From a virus, in IMG/VR virus record IMGVR_UViG_3300045988_110337: a stretch of 50,501 bases of DNA; one strand, given 5' to 3'. The position numbers and the translations under genes are program-made. Positions 1 through 50,402 of this stretch are shown in pieces. The notes beneath the pieces were generated by a model that had not been told where the DNA came from, ran no database searches, and was given only the letters and a program-made list of their open reading frames with translations. The first letter of the stretch is position 1. Every line of letters begins with the position of its first letter.

Positions 1-99
1 ATTTTTTTGTACCTATAGACAAAACTGCAACAAATGCGGATTTTTTGGGCATTCCATGTTTTCTCGCCGACTGCATACGAGTGCCGCTCGTATGGCAAA
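1..99. repeat. Terminal direct repeat copy 1 (identical to 50403-50501); circular-contig overlap, unit length about 50402 bp
   Basis: ATTTTTTTGTACCTATAGAC...CGTATGGCAAA read at both window ends. Confidence 0.9.
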
Positions 100-350
100 A
101 AAGTTTTGAGCGATTTCTCGGTGATACCAAGTTCTTTTGCTATTTCTGCTCGTGTATATCCTTGAGCGGTGAGTTTAGTTACAATCTCGGCGTTACCTTG
201 CGGGATAATGCCGTTGGTTATCAGCACGCGGTTAACGACTTGATAATTTGTTCCCGCCCTCCGAGCGGTCGCGGCAACACTATTTTCCTCTTCGTATATT
301 TCGAGTATTTTTTGTTCACGTATCATTTCGCGCTCCCACTTTTTAACCAT
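1..350 (-). CDS. Small double-HTH DNA-binding protein (aca-like candidate). The ORF runs off base 1 and closes at TGA 50398-50396 on the circular map (about 119 aa)
   Basis: ATG at 350-348, six nt after GGAGG (361-357). Hand translation: MVKKWEREMIREQKILEIYEEENSVAATARRAGTNYQVVNRVLITNGIIPQGNAEIVTKLTAQGYTRAEIAKELGITEKSLKTFLPYERHSYAVGEKTWNAQKIRICCSFVYRYKKIN. Two HTH-like segments (SVAATARRAGTNYQVV; YTRAEIAKELGITEKSL). Absent from the ORF track only because it crosses the window edge. Confidence 0.6.
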   Translation of the reverse strand, partial: MVKKWEREMIREQKILEIYEEENSVAATARRAGTNYQVVNRVLITNGIIPQGNAEIVTKLTAQGYTRAEIAKELGITEKSLKTFLPYERHSYAVGEKTWNAQKIRICCSFVYRYKK

Positions 351-370: not shown

Positions 371-405
371 AATAAACAAAAAAGTCGGAGTTTCTTTACT
401 CCGAC
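371..405 (-). terminator. Rho-independent terminator (minus strand)
   Basis: Minus strand GTCGGAG-TAAAGAAA-CTCCGAC followed by TTTTTTGTTTATT. Confidence 0.7.
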
Positions 406-421
406 CGTGATATTCAAATTG

Positions 422-504
422 CCGTTAGGGATGCCAATCTCAAGCGGATTGACTATAGATCTTGTAGGATCACCCCCGCACACGCGGGGAATTATCCCTA
501 ACGG
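422..504 (-). ncRNA. Folded RNA element: an 11-bp clamp enclosing a CRISPR-repeat-like hairpin and a second small hairpin
   Basis: 422-432 CCGTTAGGGAT is the exact reverse complement of 494-504 ATCCCTAACGG. The interior holds CCCCGC/GCGGGG and CAATC/GATTG stems. Confidence 0.5.
467..494 (-). CRISPR. Solitary type I-E-like CRISPR repeat unit (single copy, no cas genes)
   Basis: Minus strand TAATTCCCCGCGTGTGCGGGGGTGATCC: 6-bp stem, 4-nt loop, and a GCGGGGGTGATCC 3' part as I recall it from Streptococcus/Lactobacillus I-E repeats. Confidence 0.55.
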
Positions 505-553
505 TGACTTAATTATATCTCACAATATCGGATTTGTCAAGTGCTTTTATAAA

Positions 554-856
554 TTAAATTGAGTCATGAGGTGTTATGTACACATTGCCACCAAAAAGAT
601 ACCCTGTTGTCATGTCATAATGAGCTTTAACACCACTTGGATAGCAGACTTTCTTAAGTTTTCGCACTTCTCCATGTATGCATCCGAGTCCTCGGGTAAC
701 TCTGCCTCTTTCGTCACATGGATCATCGCAAAGCCACTTTAAACCGTCAATAAAATCTTCTTTGTTTATGCCTTGGTATTCGTGCCAATTTTGGTAAACT
801 CTTGACTTGTCTTCCTCAACGAGTTTCTTCTTGACTTCAAAATAGTATTTATTCAT
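554..856 (-). CDS. Hypothetical 100-aa Cys/His-containing protein (anti-CRISPR candidate by context only)
   Basis: ORF with AAGGAG RBS, directly downstream of a consensus promoter and upstream of the repeat unit. Confidence 0.6.
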   Translation of the reverse strand: MNKYYFEVKKKLVEEDKSRVYQNWHEYQGINKEDFIDGLKWLCDDPCDERGRVTRGLGCIHGEVRKLKKVCYPSGVKAHYDMTTGYLFGGNVYITPHDSI

Positions 857-4036: not shown

Positions 4037-4372
4037 GACGCGCCACAAAGCCAAGAGAGCGACATATTCACGATTTTGCGACAGGGCAGGGAAGGACTTA
4101 GTTAAGCGTATAAAGCATTATGAGAGCGTACAGACACACCCAGGCAGACACATATCAAATTGGGCAAAATGAAGATTTTGTATAATTCGGGGAAGAGATA
4201 CCCTATATGCGACACTGGGTGGTTGACGGCTGTAGAGCGGCGGGCGCGTGTTAGCCCCTCAAACATTCTCAAAAGTTAAAAAACTTAGGGCTTTTGTAAT
4301 CAGGACTTTGTAAATGGCTTTGTTCTGTTTTTCGAAAATCGCGCAAAAACAAAAAAGACCTCCGAGGTGTGT

Positions 4373-4795
4373 ATGAGATATGTCGATATATACGTTTTCG
4401 GAGGTTTTATTGAAGATAGCGGAATTGGGTATTGGCAGACACTGTTGAGGTATGGAAAGCGCGAGAAATACATTAGCGGAAGAATCGCCGGATGGAACTC
4501 AATACGGTGTACGATGGTAGCTATAGCCGAAGGGTTGAAAGCATTGAAAGAACCGTGTAACGTTACGGTATATACACAATGTGACTTTATCCCGAAAACG
4601 TTTGAAGTCGGATGGAGAAGGAAAAGCAATCTGGATTTGTGGATGGTAATAGATGATTCTGCGGCTGTTCACACGGTACAGTATAGGTGGTATCAGAAGA
4701 TAAAGTCTGTATTTCGTGATTATTTCAGGCGGACGGAAGAGGTGAACGAGAATGGAAGCACTGCAAGCGGAGATAATGGCGGGCGAACACACTGA
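4373..4795 (+). CDS. RNase HI homolog with substituted catalytic residues (pseudo-enzyme or decaying gene)
   Basis: An ungapped hand alignment to E. coli RNase HI gives LRYGKREKYISG vs LRYRGREKTFSAG and GLKALKEPCNV vs ALEALKEHCEV. Positions D10/E48/D70 read F/T/Q. Alternative GTG start at 4367; the 3' end overlaps terL. Confidence 0.55.
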   Translation: MRYVDIYVFGGFIEDSGIGYWQTLLRYGKREKYISGRIAGWNSIRCTMVAIAEGLKALKEPCNVTVYTQCDFIPKTFEVGWRRKSNLDLWMVIDDSAAVHTVQYRWYQKIKSVFRDYFRRTEEVNENGSTASGDNGGRTH

Positions 4796-6422
4796 TAGGC
4801 GTTATCTTGACGTAGCGGAAAATATTCTTTCTCACATCAAAGCCGAGCCTGAGAACATGAAACATTATACGGCTATGTATTCGGTGCTGTCTTCGATGAA
4901 TAGCTGTGCGGAAAAGTGGCGGTATTCGGAGGTTTTGAAGAGATATTGCACCGAGCGAATTATACAAAATAAATCGAAAGACGCAAGTTCTCTTTTTAAG
5001 GCTGTGCTTTTGCTTGAAGCGCAGGGATTAAGGCTTGACAGCTATATGCAGTATATAGAGCTTCAGCGAGAGCCGGAGAAAAGATTCTGGATTCCGCGAA
5101 GAAAGCAGCTCGAGCCTGTATGCCGCGCAATGCAAAAACTTGTGGACGGAGAACTTGACATATTATCTATATCTGTTCCGCCCGGTTGCGGCAAAAGCAC
5201 GCTTGAAATTTTCCTGCATTCGATGATGATAGGCGCGTTTCCCGACAGCTGTTCCCTTGCTTCGGGACATTCGGGAACGCTTACTAACTCAATATATGAC
5301 GGCGTAAACAGCATTCTTTCAGACCCTGATTATTTATGGCACGACGTGTACCCTGCCGCAGGCACGATTATAACCAATGCAAAGGAACAGACAATAGACC
5401 TCGGCAAGAAACACCGCTTTTCGTCTCTTACCTGCCGTGCTATAGGTGCTTCCCTTACAGGTGCTACGCGTTGTGAAAAGCTTCTGACCGCCGATGACCT
5501 TGTGTCGGGTATTGAGGAAGCATTGAGCATAGACCGTCTTGACAAGCTCTGGACGGCTTACACAAACGATTTGAAGTCAAGAAAGAAGCTGAATTGTAAG
5601 GAACTGCACATTGCTACAAGATGGTCGGTGCATGACCCTATAGGGAGACTGCAAACAATGTACGCGGATTCTCCGAAAGCTCAGTTTCTCGTAATGCCTG
5701 CGGTTGACGAGGACGGCGAAAGCAATTTCAATTACCGCTATGGTGTCGGCTTTGATAAGGCGTACTTCGAGGACATGAAAAACAACCTCGACGATTGTTC
5801 ATGGCGGGCTTTGTTTATGAATCAGCCGATAGAGCGCGAGGGACTTCTCTACAACGAGGACGAACTCAGACGTTATTTTGAACTTCCATCGGATTCGCCG
5901 GACGCTGTTATATCTGTGTGTGACACAAAGGACAAAGGGGCGGACTACTGTGTAATGCCTATTGCTTACCAGTACGGCAATGACTTCTACATCGAAGAAA
6001 TAATCTGCGACAACAGTAATCCCGAAATAGTTGAAACAAGGCTAGTTGAGGTTCTTTTACGGCACAAAGTCAAATTGAGCCGCTTTGAATCAAACTCTGC
6101 GGGCGGAAAAATCGCGGAAAAGGTTCAAAAAGAGGTAAAATCGCGCGGCGGAATCACAAGGATTACTACAAAATATTCGACAGCAAACAAGGCTACGCGA
6201 ATTATAGTTGATTCTCCGTTTGTCAAAGAGCATTTCCTATTCAAAGATAACAGCATTATAAAGAACAACAAAGAGTATAAACGCGCTCTCGGTATGCTTT
6301 GCAGTTATACTATGGCGGGAAGAAACGCACATGACGATGTACCCGACGCATTCTCAATGCTTTCAGACTTCATTCAATCATTTGAGACGCAGACGGTAAG
6401 ATTAATACAAAGACCTTATTGA
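4752..6422 (+). CDS. terL: Terminase large subunit
   Basis: Walker A PPGCGKST; ATRWSVHDPIG; nuclease-domain motifs VCDTKDKGADY and HDDVPDAFSM. Confidence 0.9.
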   Translation: MEALQAEIMAGEHTDRRYLDVAENILSHIKAEPENMKHYTAMYSVLSSMNSCAEKWRYSEVLKRYCTERIIQNKSKDASSLFKAVLLLEAQGLRLDSYMQYIELQREPEKRFWIPRRKQLEPVCRAMQKLVDGELDILSISVPPGCGKSTLEIFLHSMMIGAFPDSCSLASGHSGTLTNSIYDGVNSILSDPDYLWHDVYPAAGTIITNAKEQTIDLGKKHRFSSLTCRAIGASLTGATRCEKLLTADDLVSGIEEALSIDRLDKLWTAYTNDLKSRKKLNCKELHIATRWSVHDPIGRLQTMYADSPKAQFLVMPAVDEDGESNFNYRYGVGFDKAYFEDMKNNLDDCSWRALFMNQPIEREGLLYNEDELRRYFELPSDSPDAVISVCDTKDKGADYCVMPIAYQYGNDFYIEEIICDNSNPEIVETRLVEVLLRHKVKLSRFESNSAGGKIAEKVQKEVKSRGGITRITTKYSTANKATRIIVDSPFVKEHFLFKDNSIIKNNKEYKRALGMLCSYTMAGRNAHDDVPDAFSMLSDFIQSFETQTVRLIQRPY

Positions 6423-6644: not shown

Positions 6645-8168
6645 ATGGAAAACATACGGGTAGTTCCTATTTTTGTTTACACGGAGGTTTTTCTTGTGCT
6701 TGAAAATGATATTGTTCGCCTTGCTACTTGTGATAGCCTTCATGGTCGGCGAAAGATACTAACGAACAAACAAAAAATAACCAGCGACAATGTTGTGTTC
6801 GTGCTTGGAAATTCACTCGGCTTCGACAGCGCAAATGTCGCGGAAATAAATTACTTATATGACGTTTATCGCGGAATAATGGATATCCGCTATAAAGACA
6901 AATCCGTGAGACCCGACAACAACAACAAGGTCACTATCAACCTTCCGAACAAGATAGTTACTTTTAAATCCTCGTTCTTCCTAAGCTCTCCCATTCAGTA
7001 TGTAGCGGCTAACGGAAAAGAGGATATATCCGACAAGGTAGCTTATCTGAACGTTCTTATGACTTCCGAAGGAAAAGAATCAAAGGACAAAGAGTGCTCG
7101 GACTGGATGCACATCTGCGGAGTTGAACCGAGGATGGTTCTTCCCGACCCCGACAACGAGAAAGACGGCAGTCCCGCAGCTCTTTATTCCCTTGACCCGA
7201 GAGAAGCGTTTGTTATCTACTCTTCGGGCATTGGCAGAAAACCTCTCGCGGGTGTACTGAAACAGTACGACGAGGACGATAACCTCATTTACTACGTTTA
7301 TGTGCCGGAAGGAAGATACACCGTAAAGGGTAATGACGTTGTAGACTGGCTTGCTTACGACTTCGGGCGCGTTCCGATAGTGGAATATCCGCTGAATGAA
7401 GCTCGTTTGGGAGCGTTTGAGACGGTTCTCTCGCCTATCAACATGATAAACACTCTTGAGTCCGCTCGTGTTGACAATGTTGTTGACTTTGTAAACGCCT
7501 ATGACGTGTTCCAAAACTGCGAAATCGACGAGAACACATACAAGGAACTTGCAAGGGGCGGTCAGTGTATCTGCATCAGAAGCGGTCAGGGAACGGAAGC
7601 AAAGGTTTACCGCATATCCTCTGAAATCTCGCAGACGGGCGTTCAGACGGAAATAGACGCGCTGTATGACTACATTGATGAAATAACGGGTATGCCGACA
7701 AGAGCCGGAGATTCAGCCGCAGCAGACACGGGCATGGGAACGAGATTCCGCAACGGTTGGCAGGATGCTTCCGCGAGAGCTAACGACACTGAAAAGCTAT
7801 TTGCGCGTTCAGAAAGAGAGATTCTGAAGCTGATTCTCAAAATTTACAAAGACAAGGGCATTCTCGACCTTGACCCGACTGACGTTAAGATTCAGTTTAC
7901 CCGCGAAAACCTCACCGACATTCAATCGAAAGCACAGGTTCTTTGCGAACTGCTCAACAATGAAAAGGTTCATCCGCGCGACGCTTACGACATTTCCGGT
8001 TTGTTTACAGATGTAGAAAATGCATATCAGCGCGGTATGGAGTGGTATGAAGAAGCACAGTCCGAGCTTGAAAACAGCTTAGAAAAGGAGCTTGAGAATG
8101 CAAGAACGTTACATAACGACGGACAGAGCGATAGAAATACTGCGGAAGAAGACAATACGGCGGTTTGA
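6645..8168 (+). CDS. Portal protein (SPP1 gp6-like). The true start may be GTG 6696, which follows a GGAGG
   Basis: Size, position after terL, and portal-like core. Confidence 0.8.
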   Translation: MENIRVVPIFVYTEVFLVLENDIVRLATCDSLHGRRKILTNKQKITSDNVVFVLGNSLGFDSANVAEINYLYDVYRGIMDIRYKDKSVRPDNNNKVTINLPNKIVTFKSSFFLSSPIQYVAANGKEDISDKVAYLNVLMTSEGKESKDKECSDWMHICGVEPRMVLPDPDNEKDGSPAALYSLDPREAFVIYSSGIGRKPLAGVLKQYDEDDNLIYYVYVPEGRYTVKGNDVVDWLAYDFGRVPIVEYPLNEARLGAFETVLSPINMINTLESARVDNVVDFVNAYDVFQNCEIDENTYKELARGGQCICIRSGQGTEAKVYRISSEISQTGVQTEIDALYDYIDEITGMPTRAGDSAAADTGMGTRFRNGWQDASARANDTEKLFARSEREILKLILKIYKDKGILDLDPTDVKIQFTRENLTDIQSKAQVLCELLNNEKVHPRDAYDISGLFTDVENAYQRGMEWYEEAQSELENSLEKELENARTLHNDGQSDRNTAEEDNTAV

Positions 8169-29039: not shown

Positions 29040-29190
29040 TTCTCTTTTTTTCTGTTTACTGACCGCGTATTCGCTTTTGAGTTTTCAACAGACAAAATTT
29101 ATGCGCTTTAGTTCGTGAAACAACATACTTATTACTTTTTATAAGAGATACTTATTATTTTACTATTTTTATATAATTAAAGTAGGGAAA
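29040..29190. other. AT-rich region (candidate DNA unwinding element) next to the iterons
   Basis: Visibly AT-rich, e.g. TTATTACTTTTTATAAGAGATACTTATTATTTTACTATTTTTATATAATTAAAG. Confidence 0.45.
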
Positions 29191-29194
29191 TGTT

Positions 29195-29302
29195 AAACAG
29201 GACATTTGGTAACGATAAACAGGACATTTGGTAACGGATAGCAGGACATTTGGTAACTGTAAAACAGGACACTTAGTAACGACAAACAGGACATTTGGTA
29301 AC
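29195..29302. repeat. Five 22-bp iterons (core CAGGACATTTGGTAAC)
   Basis: Cores at 29198, 29220, 29242, 29265 (2 mismatches) and 29287; spacing 22/22/23/22. Confidence 0.85.
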
Positions 29303-29343
29303 TGTAAAACCGAGAAAACACATGGGAAAATTGTTCTTTTGCA

Positions 29344-29389
29344 GTTTTCAACAATGTTTTCAACATAGTTTTGCACAGAGTTTTCAACA
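29344..29389. promoter_or_regulatory. Four GTTTTCAACA boxes at exact 12-bp phasing just upstream of rep (operator candidate)
   Basis: 29344, 29356, 29368 (variant GTTTTGCACA), 29380; one further copy at 29081. Confidence 0.5.
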
Positions 29390-29403
29390 TGAAGGGAGTA
29401 ACC

Positions 29404-30096
29404 ATGAAAAATAGCGATAAAAATATTAATAATTTAGTTGTCAAAAAGAACGAACTAATTCAAAAGTCAAGATACGGAATGACAACACAGGAGCAAAAAG
29501 TCATATTGTATACGATAAGCAAGGTAAAACCCGATGATAAAGAACTTTATGAGTATGATTTCAATCTGCAAGATATGTGTGAAGCACTTGGAATTACTCA
29601 AAACGGCAAGAATTACAAGAATCTCCGTGAAACGCTTCAATCCATACGCGACAAGTCATTCTGGATAGTGGACGGAAATGTAAGAAAACTATGCGCATGG
29701 ATTTCGGGTGCGGAAATATACGAAAATGAATCGCGGGTTAGGATTCAGCTTGACAAGCGGCTGGCACCTTATTTGCTTGAACTCAAAGAATCGTATACGG
29801 CATATCAGCTTCAAACCGTGTTAAACATGGAATCGAAACACACTATACGTTTGTACGAGATACTTAAAAGCTATGACAATATAGGCGAGTACACCGTTTC
29901 TGTTGAAAATTTGAAAACGCTTATGCAAATAGGCGGTTACTCGGATTTTATTGATTTTCGCAAGCGCGTAATCGACACTGCCGTTGACGAAATTAACGCC
30001 GTTAGTGATTTGCGTGTAGCCTATGAGCCGAAACGGACGGGAAGGAGTATAACTCACATTAAATTCTCAATCACAAAAGCAAGGAGTAATCCATGA
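29404..30096 (+). CDS. Rep_3-family (RepB-like) theta-replication initiator
   Basis: LVVKKNELIQKSRYGMTTQEQKVILYTISKV... and ...SKHTIRLYEILKSY... are typical of iteron-plasmid initiators; iterons lie immediately upstream. Confidence 0.8.
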   Translation: MKNSDKNINNLVVKKNELIQKSRYGMTTQEQKVILYTISKVKPDDKELYEYDFNLQDMCEALGITQNGKNYKNLRETLQSIRDKSFWIVDGNVRKLCAWISGAEIYENESRVRIQLDKRLAPYLLELKESYTAYQLQTVLNMESKHTIRLYEILKSYDNIGEYTVSVENLKTLMQIGGYSDFIDFRKRVIDTAVDEINAVSDLRVAYEPKRTGRSITHIKFSITKARSNP

Positions 30097-48376: not shown

Positions 48377-49273
48377 TTATACCTCCTGATGATACATAAT
48401 ATTTTTAACAACCTCGTCGATTGTGACGTAACGCGGGTCGTCGACGGGGTTGGAGTAGACATCGTCATCTTCGCGATAAAAGAGGGCAAACGTAGCGGGG
48501 GAACACGTCGGCAGCTGCGCCAACCTGCGGAGGGTGGGAATATCGCTCTCCAAAAAGTTGTCGGCGTAGGCTTTAACCGCGAGGGAGTGGAGCTGACGCG
48601 AGATTTTGAGCGTCAGTTTGGAGAGTGTCTCGCGGTGCTGACCGTTGAGGACTTCCGTCCATGACAGAATAGAATCTGCTTGGTCACGTTCCTCACTTGC
48701 ACTGTGTTCTTCGCGGGAGTAATATTCGTCCTGCTCGGCGTAGAGATTGTCGAGCATTTTGATGACGTTCGCGACTTCGCCGCCCGCGAGTTCGGAAAGC
48801 GGGGAGGAAGACACGGAGTTAATAAGAACTTCCGCTTCTTCGGCTCTCGATGTGTCGCGGACGAACAGAAATGTGCCTGCTATGTCGTCGAGAAAACCGA
48901 AGTCGGCTATGCCTGCCTTGATGTAGTCGGAGAAAATGATATCTCCGATGGGACGGACAGTAGCGAGGTCGAGCTTGTCCCCGCCATCGAAAATGACGGT
49001 AGCGAGGTCAAACGCGTTGTCCGAACCCCATCTGTCGGGACAGGTGCGGGAGCTGTCTCTCCACTCGCGGTCGAGGAAGAAATGCGCGTCTTCTTCCCTC
49101 CACAGGCAGCAGTACGAAGTGTCGCCTATGCGGATTTCCTCGACATAGGCGGATGCGCGGTCGCTCTCGGTTTCCCCCAGAGAACGGAAGAACGCGGTGC
49201 AGTGGGCGAAAAATGAGTTTGCTCCGTTGACGGGGACGAAACGGTGGGAAGATGATGATGCGTATTTATACAT
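48377..49273 (-). CDS. Hypothetical 298-aa protein
   Basis: Long ORF with AAAGGAG RBS, 2 nt from the downstream HTH gene. Confidence 0.6.
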   Translation of the reverse strand: MYKYASSSSHRFVPVNGANSFFAHCTAFFRSLGETESDRASAYVEEIRIGDTSYCCLWREEDAHFFLDREWRDSSRTCPDRWGSDNAFDLATVIFDGGDKLDLATVRPIGDIIFSDYIKAGIADFGFLDDIAGTFLFVRDTSRAEEAEVLINSVSSSPLSELAGGEVANVIKMLDNLYAEQDEYYSREEHSASEERDQADSILSWTEVLNGQHRETLSKLTLKISRQLHSLAVKAYADNFLESDIPTLRRLAQLPTCSPATFALFYREDDDVYSNPVDDPRYVTIDEVVKNIMYHQEV

Positions 49274-49369: not shown

Positions 49370-50293
49370 TTAAAGGACCGCCCCCTCTGGGAAACAGTCG
49401 CACTTTGCCAGCTTTTCGATGAGCTCTACTTGTGTCATGTGGTAGCCGGGTTCGGCGAGTCTCTTAATCGTGTGAGCGTAGCTGTGCTCATCGTCGTAGT
49501 AGTCGTTTTTCTCGTCGTCGTCATATTTCTCGTGATATTCGCCGATGATGTCTAGTGCGTACTCCTTGTATACGTAGCACTTTTGTGCGAAAATGTCGTC
49601 GATGAGGCGGAGAAAACCGTATCTTTTAATAGCTTCCTCGGCGGTGATTCGCTTGCCCTGGTCGATGATGACCTCCTTGGCGAGCTCGGCGAAGGAGTAG
49701 GAGAAGCTGAGTTCAACCGCACTGCTGTGCTTGGTTTCGAGGAGCTCTCGGAGTTCGATTGCCCCCTCCGTGTCCTCGTCGGCTACCTTGAGAAGATTTC
49801 CGTCGTCGATGACGTAAGAATAAAGGAGGTTTTCGGCGGGCTGCGTGTTGAGAATGATGTGGAGTTCGGGAGATGACTCAAAAGCTATCTCGTAGCCGTC
49901 GACACCTCCGTCAGTCGGGAGGTCGTCGGGGCGGCGTGAGCGGCGAGAATGGGAATCTTCCCATTTGTCGATTCTCTCGGCTATGAAGCGAGCATCTTCT
50001 ACTGCTTCGGCGAATCCGTAGTAAACTTTGGTGTCGCCGTCGTAGGGGTAGTCTTCGTGGAGGAGAGCGATTCTCACCGCCCAGCTTTTGGGTTCTTCCG
50101 GCTCGTCGTCGGGCTGGTAGCTGTCGGCTACCCAGTCGAGGTCTTCGTATGAGTATTCCTCGCCGTCGATGATGTAGGTCTGGTCTTCGGTGGCTTCCGC
50201 TCCTGCCCACTCGATAGCTTCGTCGAGGGTGAGGTTTTCTCCGCCGAGAACTGAATAGAGGGTTTTTCCTGTGTTTTTGTCGATAAGCTTCAT
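49370..50293 (-). CDS. Highly acidic 307-aa protein (DNA-mimic / anti-restriction candidate)
   Basis: 15 of the first 60 residues are D/E against 3 K/R (hand count). Acidic runs such as DDEPEEP and EKYDDDEKNDYYDDE. Driven by a consensus promoter. Confidence 0.6.
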   Translation of the reverse strand: MKLIDKNTGKTLYSVLGGENLTLDEAIEWAGAEATEDQTYIIDGEEYSYEDLDWVADSYQPDDEPEEPKSWAVRIALLHEDYPYDGDTKVYYGFAEAVEDARFIAERIDKWEDSHSRRSRRPDDLPTDGGVDGYEIAFESSPELHIILNTQPAENLLYSYVIDDGNLLKVADEDTEGAIELRELLETKHSSAVELSFSYSFAELAKEVIIDQGKRITAEEAIKRYGFLRLIDDIFAQKCYVYKEYALDIIGEYHEKYDDDEKNDYYDDEHSYAHTIKRLAEPGYHMTQVELIEKLAKCDCFPEGAVL

Positions 50294-50321
50294 GATTTTT
50301 CTCCTTTTGTTTCGTTCTTTC

Positions 50322-50373
50322 TTTTGTTTACGCTTATATTATACCACCCATTGGCGCATTTGTCAATAGGTTT
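50322..50373. repeat. 52-bp promoter cassette, copy B (identical to 880-931)
   Basis: Same 52-mer. Confidence 0.9.
50338..50366 (-). promoter_or_regulatory. Consensus promoter TTGACA-17-TGgTATAAT, leftward
   Basis: Minus strand TTGACA (50366-50361), TATAAT (50343-50338). Confidence 0.7.
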
Positions 50374-50402
50374 TGATAAATTTCTTTTGATTTTCTCAAT
50401 TT

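Follow-up and report, generated by a model that had tools for sequence, protein, structure and literature searches.

What would a phage without cas genes gain from one isolated repeat of the kind found in type I-E CRISPR systems, and why would that repeat lie inside a long closing stem? IMG/VR virus record IMGVR_UViG_3300045988_110337 raises this question. We analysed the whole stretch of 50,501 nucleotides (nt), referred to here as the window; all coordinates are whole-window positions, and the element in question is read on the minus strand, from 540 to 373. Judged from its sequence, window 540-373 is a self-contained accessory gene for a predicted small RNA of ~130 nt. We put at roughly 60% the probability that this RNA is a type I-E CRISPR RNA (crRNA) look-alike that acts as a decoy, that is, an accessory phage gene product of the RNA anti-CRISPR (Racr) class. 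The solitary repeat at its core has already been catalogued and belongs to a known kind, a Racr candidate with putative activity, while the stand-alone anatomy of the gene, its behaviour as a cassette and a recurrent closing stem with exact crRNA spacing are new here.

The repeat occupies minus strand 494 to 467 (TAATTCCCCGCGTGTGCGGGGGTGATCC), and the 25-mer TTCCCCGCGTGTGCGGGGGTGATCC is identical at 25 of 25 positions to the repeats of genuine arrays that have a 61-base-pair (bp) period (28-nt repeat plus 33-nt spacer). Arrays with the identical 25-mer belong to Lachnospiraceae metagenome-assembled genomes, Kineothrix, Ruminococcus, Flemingibacterium, Secundilactobacillus collinoides and Paenibacillus ginsengihumi, and in L040/L101 (L-numbers label the fetched contigs and loci that were compared with the window) the matching array lies directly 3' of cas3-cse1-cse2-cas7e-cas5e-cas6e-cas1-cas2, a type I-E operon. 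Because host repeats differ in their first five bases (GTGTT, GTATT, GTTTT, CTTTT or ATGTT, with TAATT in the phage), the identity coincides exactly with the Cas6e hairpin plus what would become the 5' handle of a crRNA. The original prediction, made from the letters of the window, had proposed a type I-E repeat architecture by comparison with a Streptococcus thermophilus repeat; that repeat was not found in the searchable literature and gives way to the direct match with genuine arrays, whereas the proposed architecture is borne out by 25 nt of identity to Firmicutes type I-E arrays, which goes beyond a generic GC hairpin.

As had also been proposed, the repeat is a single copy on a phage without cas genes. 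Its hairpin occurs once in the phage genome, local alignment on both strands found no second, degenerate repeat in the 100-nt flanks (scores at chance level), no repeat array was found elsewhere in the genome, and a Pfam scan of ~38 open reading frames (ORFs) found no cas genes and no integrase or recombinase. At the RNA locus, no Rfam family reached its gathering score, and a search relaxed to E 10 returned chance-level matches (E 0.9-10), none of them a CRISPR repeat family. The repeat family to which the hairpin belongs is present, solitary or in mini-arrays, in dozens of other phages.

The repeat is embedded in an intergenic RNA gene, with ORF 554-856 on one side and a helix-turn-helix (HTH) gene on the other, and the parts of this gene are listed in Table 1. 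Its promoter, one of seven perfect promoters in the phage genome, ends 18 nt from the repeat and reads it in crRNA sense (for a solitary repeat unit, SRU, the promoter is expected at most 250 bp upstream); it predicts a transcription start at ~505-508 and leaves ~7 nt between promoter and 5' arm. The original prediction had described the CCCCGC/GCGGGG stem, 4-nt loop and GTGATCC flank, a perfect 11-bp inverted repeat (422-432/494-504), a 34-nt insert with a CAATC/GATTG hairpin, and a location between ORF 554-856 and a terminator. All of these lie where it placed them, and the inverted repeat is Watson-Crick throughout, although T494 was counted twice, in the clamp and in the 28-mer. The crRNA-sense orientation that it claimed likewise agrees with the perfect promoter, which it did not mention, and with the terminator on the same strand.

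Table 1. Parts of the small RNA gene with the solitary type I-E repeat, and its neighbouring genes, in window coordinates.
Feature	Position	Strand	Remarks
Promoter TTGACA-17-TATAAT, sigma-70-type	512..540	-	12/12 consensus; retained in all copies
Closing stem, 5' arm CCGTTAGGGAT (RNA form CCGUUAGGGAU)	494..504	-	Exact complement of 432-422; 1-4 nt from predicted RNA 5' end
Linker AAUU, 4 nt	490..493	-	Occupies the place of the 5-nt 5' tail in host repeats (GUUUU, GUAUU)
Type I-E repeat hairpin CCCCGC-GUGU-GCGGGG	474..489	-	Stem 489-484, loop 483-480, stem 479-474; pair probabilities >=0.995; expected Cas6e binding site
GUGAUCC	467..473	-	Same as the host-repeat portion that becomes the crRNA 5' handle
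Spacer-length segment, 34 nt	433..466	-	Two small internal hairpins: GAUC/GAUC and CAAUC 451-447 / GAUUG 439-435
Closing stem, 3' arm ATCCCTAACGG (RNA form AUCCCUAACGG)	422..432	-	Pairs with 504-494
A/U-rich single-stranded tail, 15 nt	407..421	-	Between closing stem and terminator; predicted fold
Intrinsic terminator: 9-bp stem, 6-nt loop, U-run	373..406	-	Stem 406-383, then T-run
Upstream neighbour, 100-aa protein	554..856	-	Own perfect promoter 924-896; phrog_35298, function unknown
Downstream neighbour, 118-aa protein with two HTH motifs	1..350, wraps circular junction to ~50396-50402	-	Starts ~30 nt after RNA terminator; no own promoter

Between ~505 and ~375, the RNA is predicted to fold into the 11-bp closing stem, the repeat hairpin, a 4-bp GAUC/GAUC hairpin, the CAAUC/GAUUG hairpin and then the terminator, with z = -7.15 over 143 nt, z = -5.7 for the 95-nt core and pair probabilities of 0.87-1.0 in all helices, a range that also holds for the closing stem's 5' arm. 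On the opposite strand the fold is just as stable, so that folding energy gives no strand call; because both strands fold equally well, we assigned the strand from the promoter, the terminator and one polymorphism, a C-to-T change in the 3' arm of L001 that gives G-U in the minus-sense RNA and A-C on the opposite strand. Perfect 11-bp inverted repeats are not rare in this phage genome, in which six loci have one, and an earlier clamp statistic that allowed G-U pairs was too permissive (an 11-bp run in 10% of shuffles). We therefore used duplex energies instead, and by this measure the duplex between the leader and the downstream sequence of the window has a z of -5.2 and beats 200 of 200 shuffles. 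In addition, the GAUC of the handle (471-468) is predicted to pair with GAUC 461-458 (window 458-471, minus strand), and a GAUC pairing 6-8 nt downstream is also found in L008 and L015; in this predicted fold, the GAUC/GAUC pairing would mask the 5' handle until the structure opens.

Near-identical copies of the RNA element were found in ten contigs, which come from gut or faecal metagenomes wherever the source is known. Apart from the change in L001, the copies differ by A or T at 493, just after the 5' arm, by C to A in the third hairpin, within the 34-nt segment, in L093, and by A to G in the terminator loop in L091. Among the contigs that encode an identical 100-aa upstream protein, six have the cassette of promoter, RNA and terminator and four lack it cleanly; in the latter, the next TTGACAAAT promoter module comes after the stop codon of the ORF. 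In L086 the RNA is present and the HTH gene is replaced by a different downstream gene. This pattern of presence and absence indicates that the RNA gene is a self-contained accessory module in a variable region made up of repeated promoter modules.

The supplement of the Racr paper (PMC10651486) lists UGV-GENOME-0311599, 467-492, I-E, with sequence and coordinates as in the window. SRUFinder had thus detected this repeat independently, assigning it to type I-E at 100% identity and 92.9% coverage, and a second row of the supplement, UGV-GENOME-0228117, corresponds to the L001/L054 variant. The suggestion in the original prediction of a phage solitary repeat or Racr-type candidate is in agreement with this listing as a type I-E SRU and with what we find at the sequence level. 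Phage SRUs are expressed as small RNAs that inhibit CRISPR-Cas (Camara-Wilpert et al. 2023, PMC10651486); SRUs of types I-E, I-F, I-C and V-A act as anti-CRISPRs, a non-targeting crRNA also lowers interference by competition, and RacrIE1 and RacrIE2 are two further type I-E candidates that proved inhibitory when tested on a Pseudomonas type I-E system (PMC10651486). The window resembles RacrIE1, RacrIE2 and RacrIF1 in having a single repeat on a cas-less phage, a promoter of its own and a repeat subtype that would match that of the putative hosts.

We propose the following mechanism for such a decoy. Type I-E repeats are cut after the hairpin, which here would be between GCGGGG and GUGAUCC (between 474 and 473), and S. 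thermophilus crRNA consists of a 7-nt handle, a 33-nt spacer and a 21-nt 3' handle. The consensus promoter would give rise to abundant RNA, and the Cas6e of the host would bind the perfect repeat hairpin and cut at this position. The downstream piece would then have an authentic 5' handle at its start, with 34 nt behind it, and could nucleate Cas5e, Cas7e and Cas8e, while the upstream piece would retain Cas6e, and the 11-bp closing stem would join both pieces and shield the RNA 5' end. Being abundant, such a crRNA mimic would absorb Cascade subunits and compete with the host crRNAs that target the phage.

The closing stem makes it tempting to speculate further about how the two pieces might cooperate. 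After Cas6e cutting they are predicted to remain paired via the stem (ddG of ~-16 kcal/mol). The two arms run antiparallel, so the 3' end of the segment exits at the same end of the stem as the AAUU linker, and the path across the junction runs from the 7-nt handle through 34 + 4 = 38 nt to the hairpin, as in a host crRNA with 33 + 5 = 38 nt. The stem might in this way make of one repeat a two-piece, circularly permuted crRNA on which a full Cascade assembles, either as a stoichiometric decoy or as a guide, an idea that we regard as rather improbable. The spacing in other phage units is mixed: in L136 the path is 31 + 7 = 38 nt as compared with 37 in the canonical crRNA of its repeat type, in the L008 family it is 16 + 4 = 20 nt, equal to 38 minus three 6-nt Cas7 steps, and in L071 it is 30 nt, which does not fit crRNA spacing. 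Moreover, because mini-arrays that retain a terminal repeat carry the stem too, the stem must also, or solely, stabilise or insulate the RNA. Candidate roles are to protect the 5' end, to insulate the fold against transcripts reading through from the 924 promoter, and to keep the leader free of Cas7. The conservative reading is that of a Racr-class mimic in which the stem stabilises the RNA and holds it together.

To see how widespread the closing stem is, we computed how well the 30-nt leader can pair with the 110 nt that follow the first repeat and took the best duplex for each of 29 non-redundant viral units with a GTGATCC-type repeat, using shuffled leaders as reference. The window has the top score among the 29 units, and four more independent families reach the 3% level or lower, against a chance expectation of about one. 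In L022/L036 the stem encloses a repeat-spacer-repeat unit; in L008/L015/L029/L030 it encloses ~16 nt along with a single repeat; in L071, with two repeats, the 3' arm comes after the last spacer-like segment; and in L081/L055 the last spacer's end serves as the 3' arm. A weaker closing stem is present in L012. Overall, the stem occurs in about half of the low-GC families and in no high-GC unit. The idea that it is general to type I-E solitary repeats was rejected, since among Proteobacteria-type units 2 of 43 are at the 3% level and 1.3 are expected. The closing stem is thus recurrent but not general. It is mentioned neither in the Racr paper (PMC10651486) nor in the Cracr preprint (bioRxiv 10.1101/2024.10.29.618823) nor in the paper of Shmakov et al. 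on repeat-like regulators, in line with the statement in the original prediction that the outer clamp was unfamiliar from described cases.

Two of these units have a layout worth describing on its own. One of the two Proteobacteria-type units at the 3% level, L136, comes from an unrelated phage and has, on the minus strand at ~595-617 of its locus, an Escherichia coli-type I-E repeat (…GCGGGGATAAACC) with the layout of the window: an outer stem, a 7-nt linker, the hairpin, an 8-nt handle, 31 nt and the 3' arm, followed by a U-run. L015 (5338-5580) belongs, with L008, L029 and L030, to a second family in which a solitary type I-E repeat RNA is clamped, with a TG-extended promoter, a nested closing stem, the repeat hairpin, a GAUC/GAUC mini-hairpin and a terminator. 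The clamped repeat of L015 lies immediately 3' of a tyrosine-integrase-like gene (4186-5310), and a link to integration is conceivable there.

The alternative that deserves most attention is that the RNA is a guide rather than a decoy, with its handle-led 34-nt segment programming the host Cascade against a cas or toxin promoter, as in Cracr elements, or against a rival phage or plasmid, as in a mini-array in which the clamp replaces the second repeat. We consider this unlikely. The 5' handle is authentic, the segment measures 34 nt where host spacers have 33 nt, and the stem hides the leader, so that the 34-nt segment alone would be left free for Cas7. Viral type I-E Cracrs and mini-arrays are established, and sibling units such as L055/L081 and L007 resemble guide arrays in which several segments share 5' seeds: the two spacer-like segments of L055/L081 have the first ~12 nt in common (ttctgtgtttcg / ttctatgtttcg), and L007, L017, L018 and L019 are among the I-E units that have seed-sharing segments or near-identical 25-mers, as viral Cracr arrays do for variants of a target. 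Set against this are the lack of a second repeat, the predicted internal structure of the segment, which would be unusual for a guide, and the target searches. The segment read from 466 to 433 was compared with IMG/VR and the JGI metagenomes, leaving every 6th position free, with INPHARED and PLSDB by blastn, with the phage itself, and with 650 kb of fetched loci, among them the relatives without the cassette; across these searches, self copies and chance 9-18-mers were all that turned up. These protospacer negatives are weak because the positive controls, spacers of the genuine mini-arrays L022 and L025 put through the same pattern search, found only themselves and thus likewise no target. 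A Cracr would have a protospacer-adjacent motif (PAM)-proximal match of >=9 bp to host CreR/CreA or a cas promoter, and usually has two repeat-like elements and segments of 21-24 nt (bioRxiv 10.1101/2024.10.29.618823). In a seed test against 23 host I-E loci (14 + 9, including the full identical-repeat locus L101), the best match covered 8 PAM-proximal positions, with 3.7 such matches expected by chance, and within these 23 loci no 8-position match fell in a promoter region. With these target negatives, weak as they are, we treat the decoy as the default reading and a guide as the less probable one.

The window shares with Cracrs, for example the CracrIE array of a Salmonella prophage, a phage-borne repeat with a spacer-like segment and a promoter and terminator of its own, and type I-E examples exist; however, it has one repeat and a 34-nt segment, and no qualifying match in the loci compared. 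A Cracr also competes for Cas proteins (bioRxiv 10.1101/2024.10.29.618823). Viral mini-arrays (PMC11656645) are similar in that a host-identical repeat and a spacer-length segment are found on a virus without cas genes, and many sibling phages have units of repeat, spacer and truncated repeat from the same repeat family. Mini-arrays, however, need >=2 repeats around 1-2 spacers, whereas the window lacks a second repeat and a related virus with a match was not found; the one-spacer mini-array that the original prediction offered as an alternative accordingly finds no backing in a second repeat or, within the low power of the search, in a protospacer. Finally, the repeat-like regulators of Shmakov et al. 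are standalone repeat-like RNAs that use Cas proteins for ends other than immunity, but they belong to cas loci, where they typically sit between cas3 and cas8e, and have the cas promoter as their target, while the repeat in the window is on a phage.

Two further explanations are much less probable. The element could act as DNA, either as a site for recombination or attachment into host CRISPR arrays or with its inverted repeat forming a cruciform or binding a protein. For viral SRUs, a role in integration into CRISPR arrays has been suggested (PMC10651486), the equal stability of the fold on both strands would suit a DNA structure, and the clamped repeat of L015 directly follows an integrase-like gene. 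What makes a DNA-level role very improbable is that a perfect promoter and a terminator frame the element exactly and in crRNA sense, that the sole clamp polymorphism retains pairing as G-U in the RNA sense and becomes A-C on the other strand, and that Rep3 and iterons suggest plasmid-like maintenance; the more specific idea of a phage attachment site (attP) was dropped, as no integrase was found in the ~38 ORFs. One might also think of a structured small RNA of an unrelated kind, or of a GC hairpin that arose by chance, since the locus matches no Rfam family and the phage has other structured RNAs (pistol, twister and gut-2). This explanation is effectively refuted by the exact 25-nt identity over hairpin, loop and 7-nt handle, and the presence of the same repeat family in other phages and the independent detection by SRUFinder also speak against it.

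Several observations nevertheless weigh against the decoy reading. The mechanism known from RacrIF1, in which a ~70-nt piece upstream of the cut holds Cas6f and a long Cas7f filament in a complex without Cas5f and Cas8f (PMC10651486), is not simply transferable: the upstream piece here is ~37 nt including the hairpin, with 11 nt of it paired so that, hairpin aside, 4-10 nt stay unpaired, and it is locked by the 11-bp stem to sequence beyond the spacer-length segment, whereas the RacrIF1 piece is long and unpaired. The first five nt of the repeat are partly conserved, with three of the five bases of TAATT agreeing with host 5' ends (GTATT, GTTTT, GTGTT). Because the ten copies are nearly identical, covariation lends the fold no support. 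The phage, whose host is inferred, is matched by none of 157 spacers from the fetched arrays; and the low power of the target searches leaves a guide with some probability.

The phage genome is complete, circular or terminally redundant, with 50,402 bp and a 99-nt terminal overlap, and the proteins recognised in the Pfam scan (portal, capsid E, G39P, RecT, single-stranded DNA-binding protein (SSB), Rep3 initiator and M23 lysin) are those of an SPP1-like siphovirus; no genes for transfer RNA or transfer-messenger RNA were found. Relatives of the phage and its Rep3 initiator point to Firmicutes/Lachnospiraceae hosts, and the identical repeat is found in gut and rumen Clostridia that have type I-E systems. 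Five 22-bp iterons (AAACAGGACATTTGGTAAC core) at 29163-29324 (+) lie directly upstream of the Rep3-type initiator (29371-30096, +), whose nearest relatives are from rumen and Butyrivibrio plasmids. Given Rep3 and the iterons, and as an integrase was not found, the phage may persist in plasmid form.

Both neighbours of the RNA gene are taken here as context. The 100-aa upstream protein, considered as a possible known anti-CRISPR (Acr) protein, has no Pfam, NCBIfam or PDB match, and its gene occurs in relatives with and without the RNA cassette. The downstream HTH gene is in the position expected of an aca gene, and the best NCBIfam match of its 118-aa product is the CRISPR DNA repeat-binding protein Cbp1, at 27 bits with a cut-off of 140; it has no PDB relative. 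A role as dedicated partner of the RNA, Aca- or Cbp1-like, was rejected: homologues with 67-78% identity are in tight operons without a repeat RNA, and L086 has the RNA without the HTH gene.

Promoter modules of the variable region (TTGACAAATGCGCCAATGGGTGGTATAAT plus flanks, 89-93% identical) stand at 877-959, 2648-2701 and 50319-50401, each heading a separate small leftward gene or genes, and the gene cassettes between them are swapped in and out among relatives. The same accessory region encodes an 85-aa ORF (958-1215, -) with a lipoprotein-like N-terminus (MKKLTSLALIILLGIVSCSP...) and no family match. A pistol ribozyme (RF02679, 49302-49366, -; 61.1 bits with a gathering score of 34.5) is located between the leftward, function-unknown ORFs 49370-50293 and 48377-49273, in the variable early region that also holds the repeat RNA. 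The phage has a second self-cleaving ribozyme, a type-P5 twister (RF02684, 2180-2237, -; 46.9 bits) immediately upstream of where ORF 1354-2154 starts, and a gut-2 RNA motif (RF02990, 6597-6644, +; 48.9 bits) whose last base directly precedes the start codon of the SPP1-type portal gene (6645-8168).

The repeat is in itself a clue to the host of this uncultured gut phage, which we would look for among the Clostridia that have the same repeat. The solitary repeat adds one more Racr candidate, and the added value of this locus is the architecture of its closing stem. If the stem merely stabilises the RNA, the gene is an ordinary Racr candidate. If, on the other hand, one repeat can give a full crRNA mimic, this would constitute a second Racr mechanism: where RacrIF1 forms an open Cas7 filament, the RNA would act as a full-complex decoy or a hijacked guide. 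The engagement of Cas5 and Cas8 by single-repeat units would then have an explanation, and type I guides could be expressed from a single repeat in a compact design.

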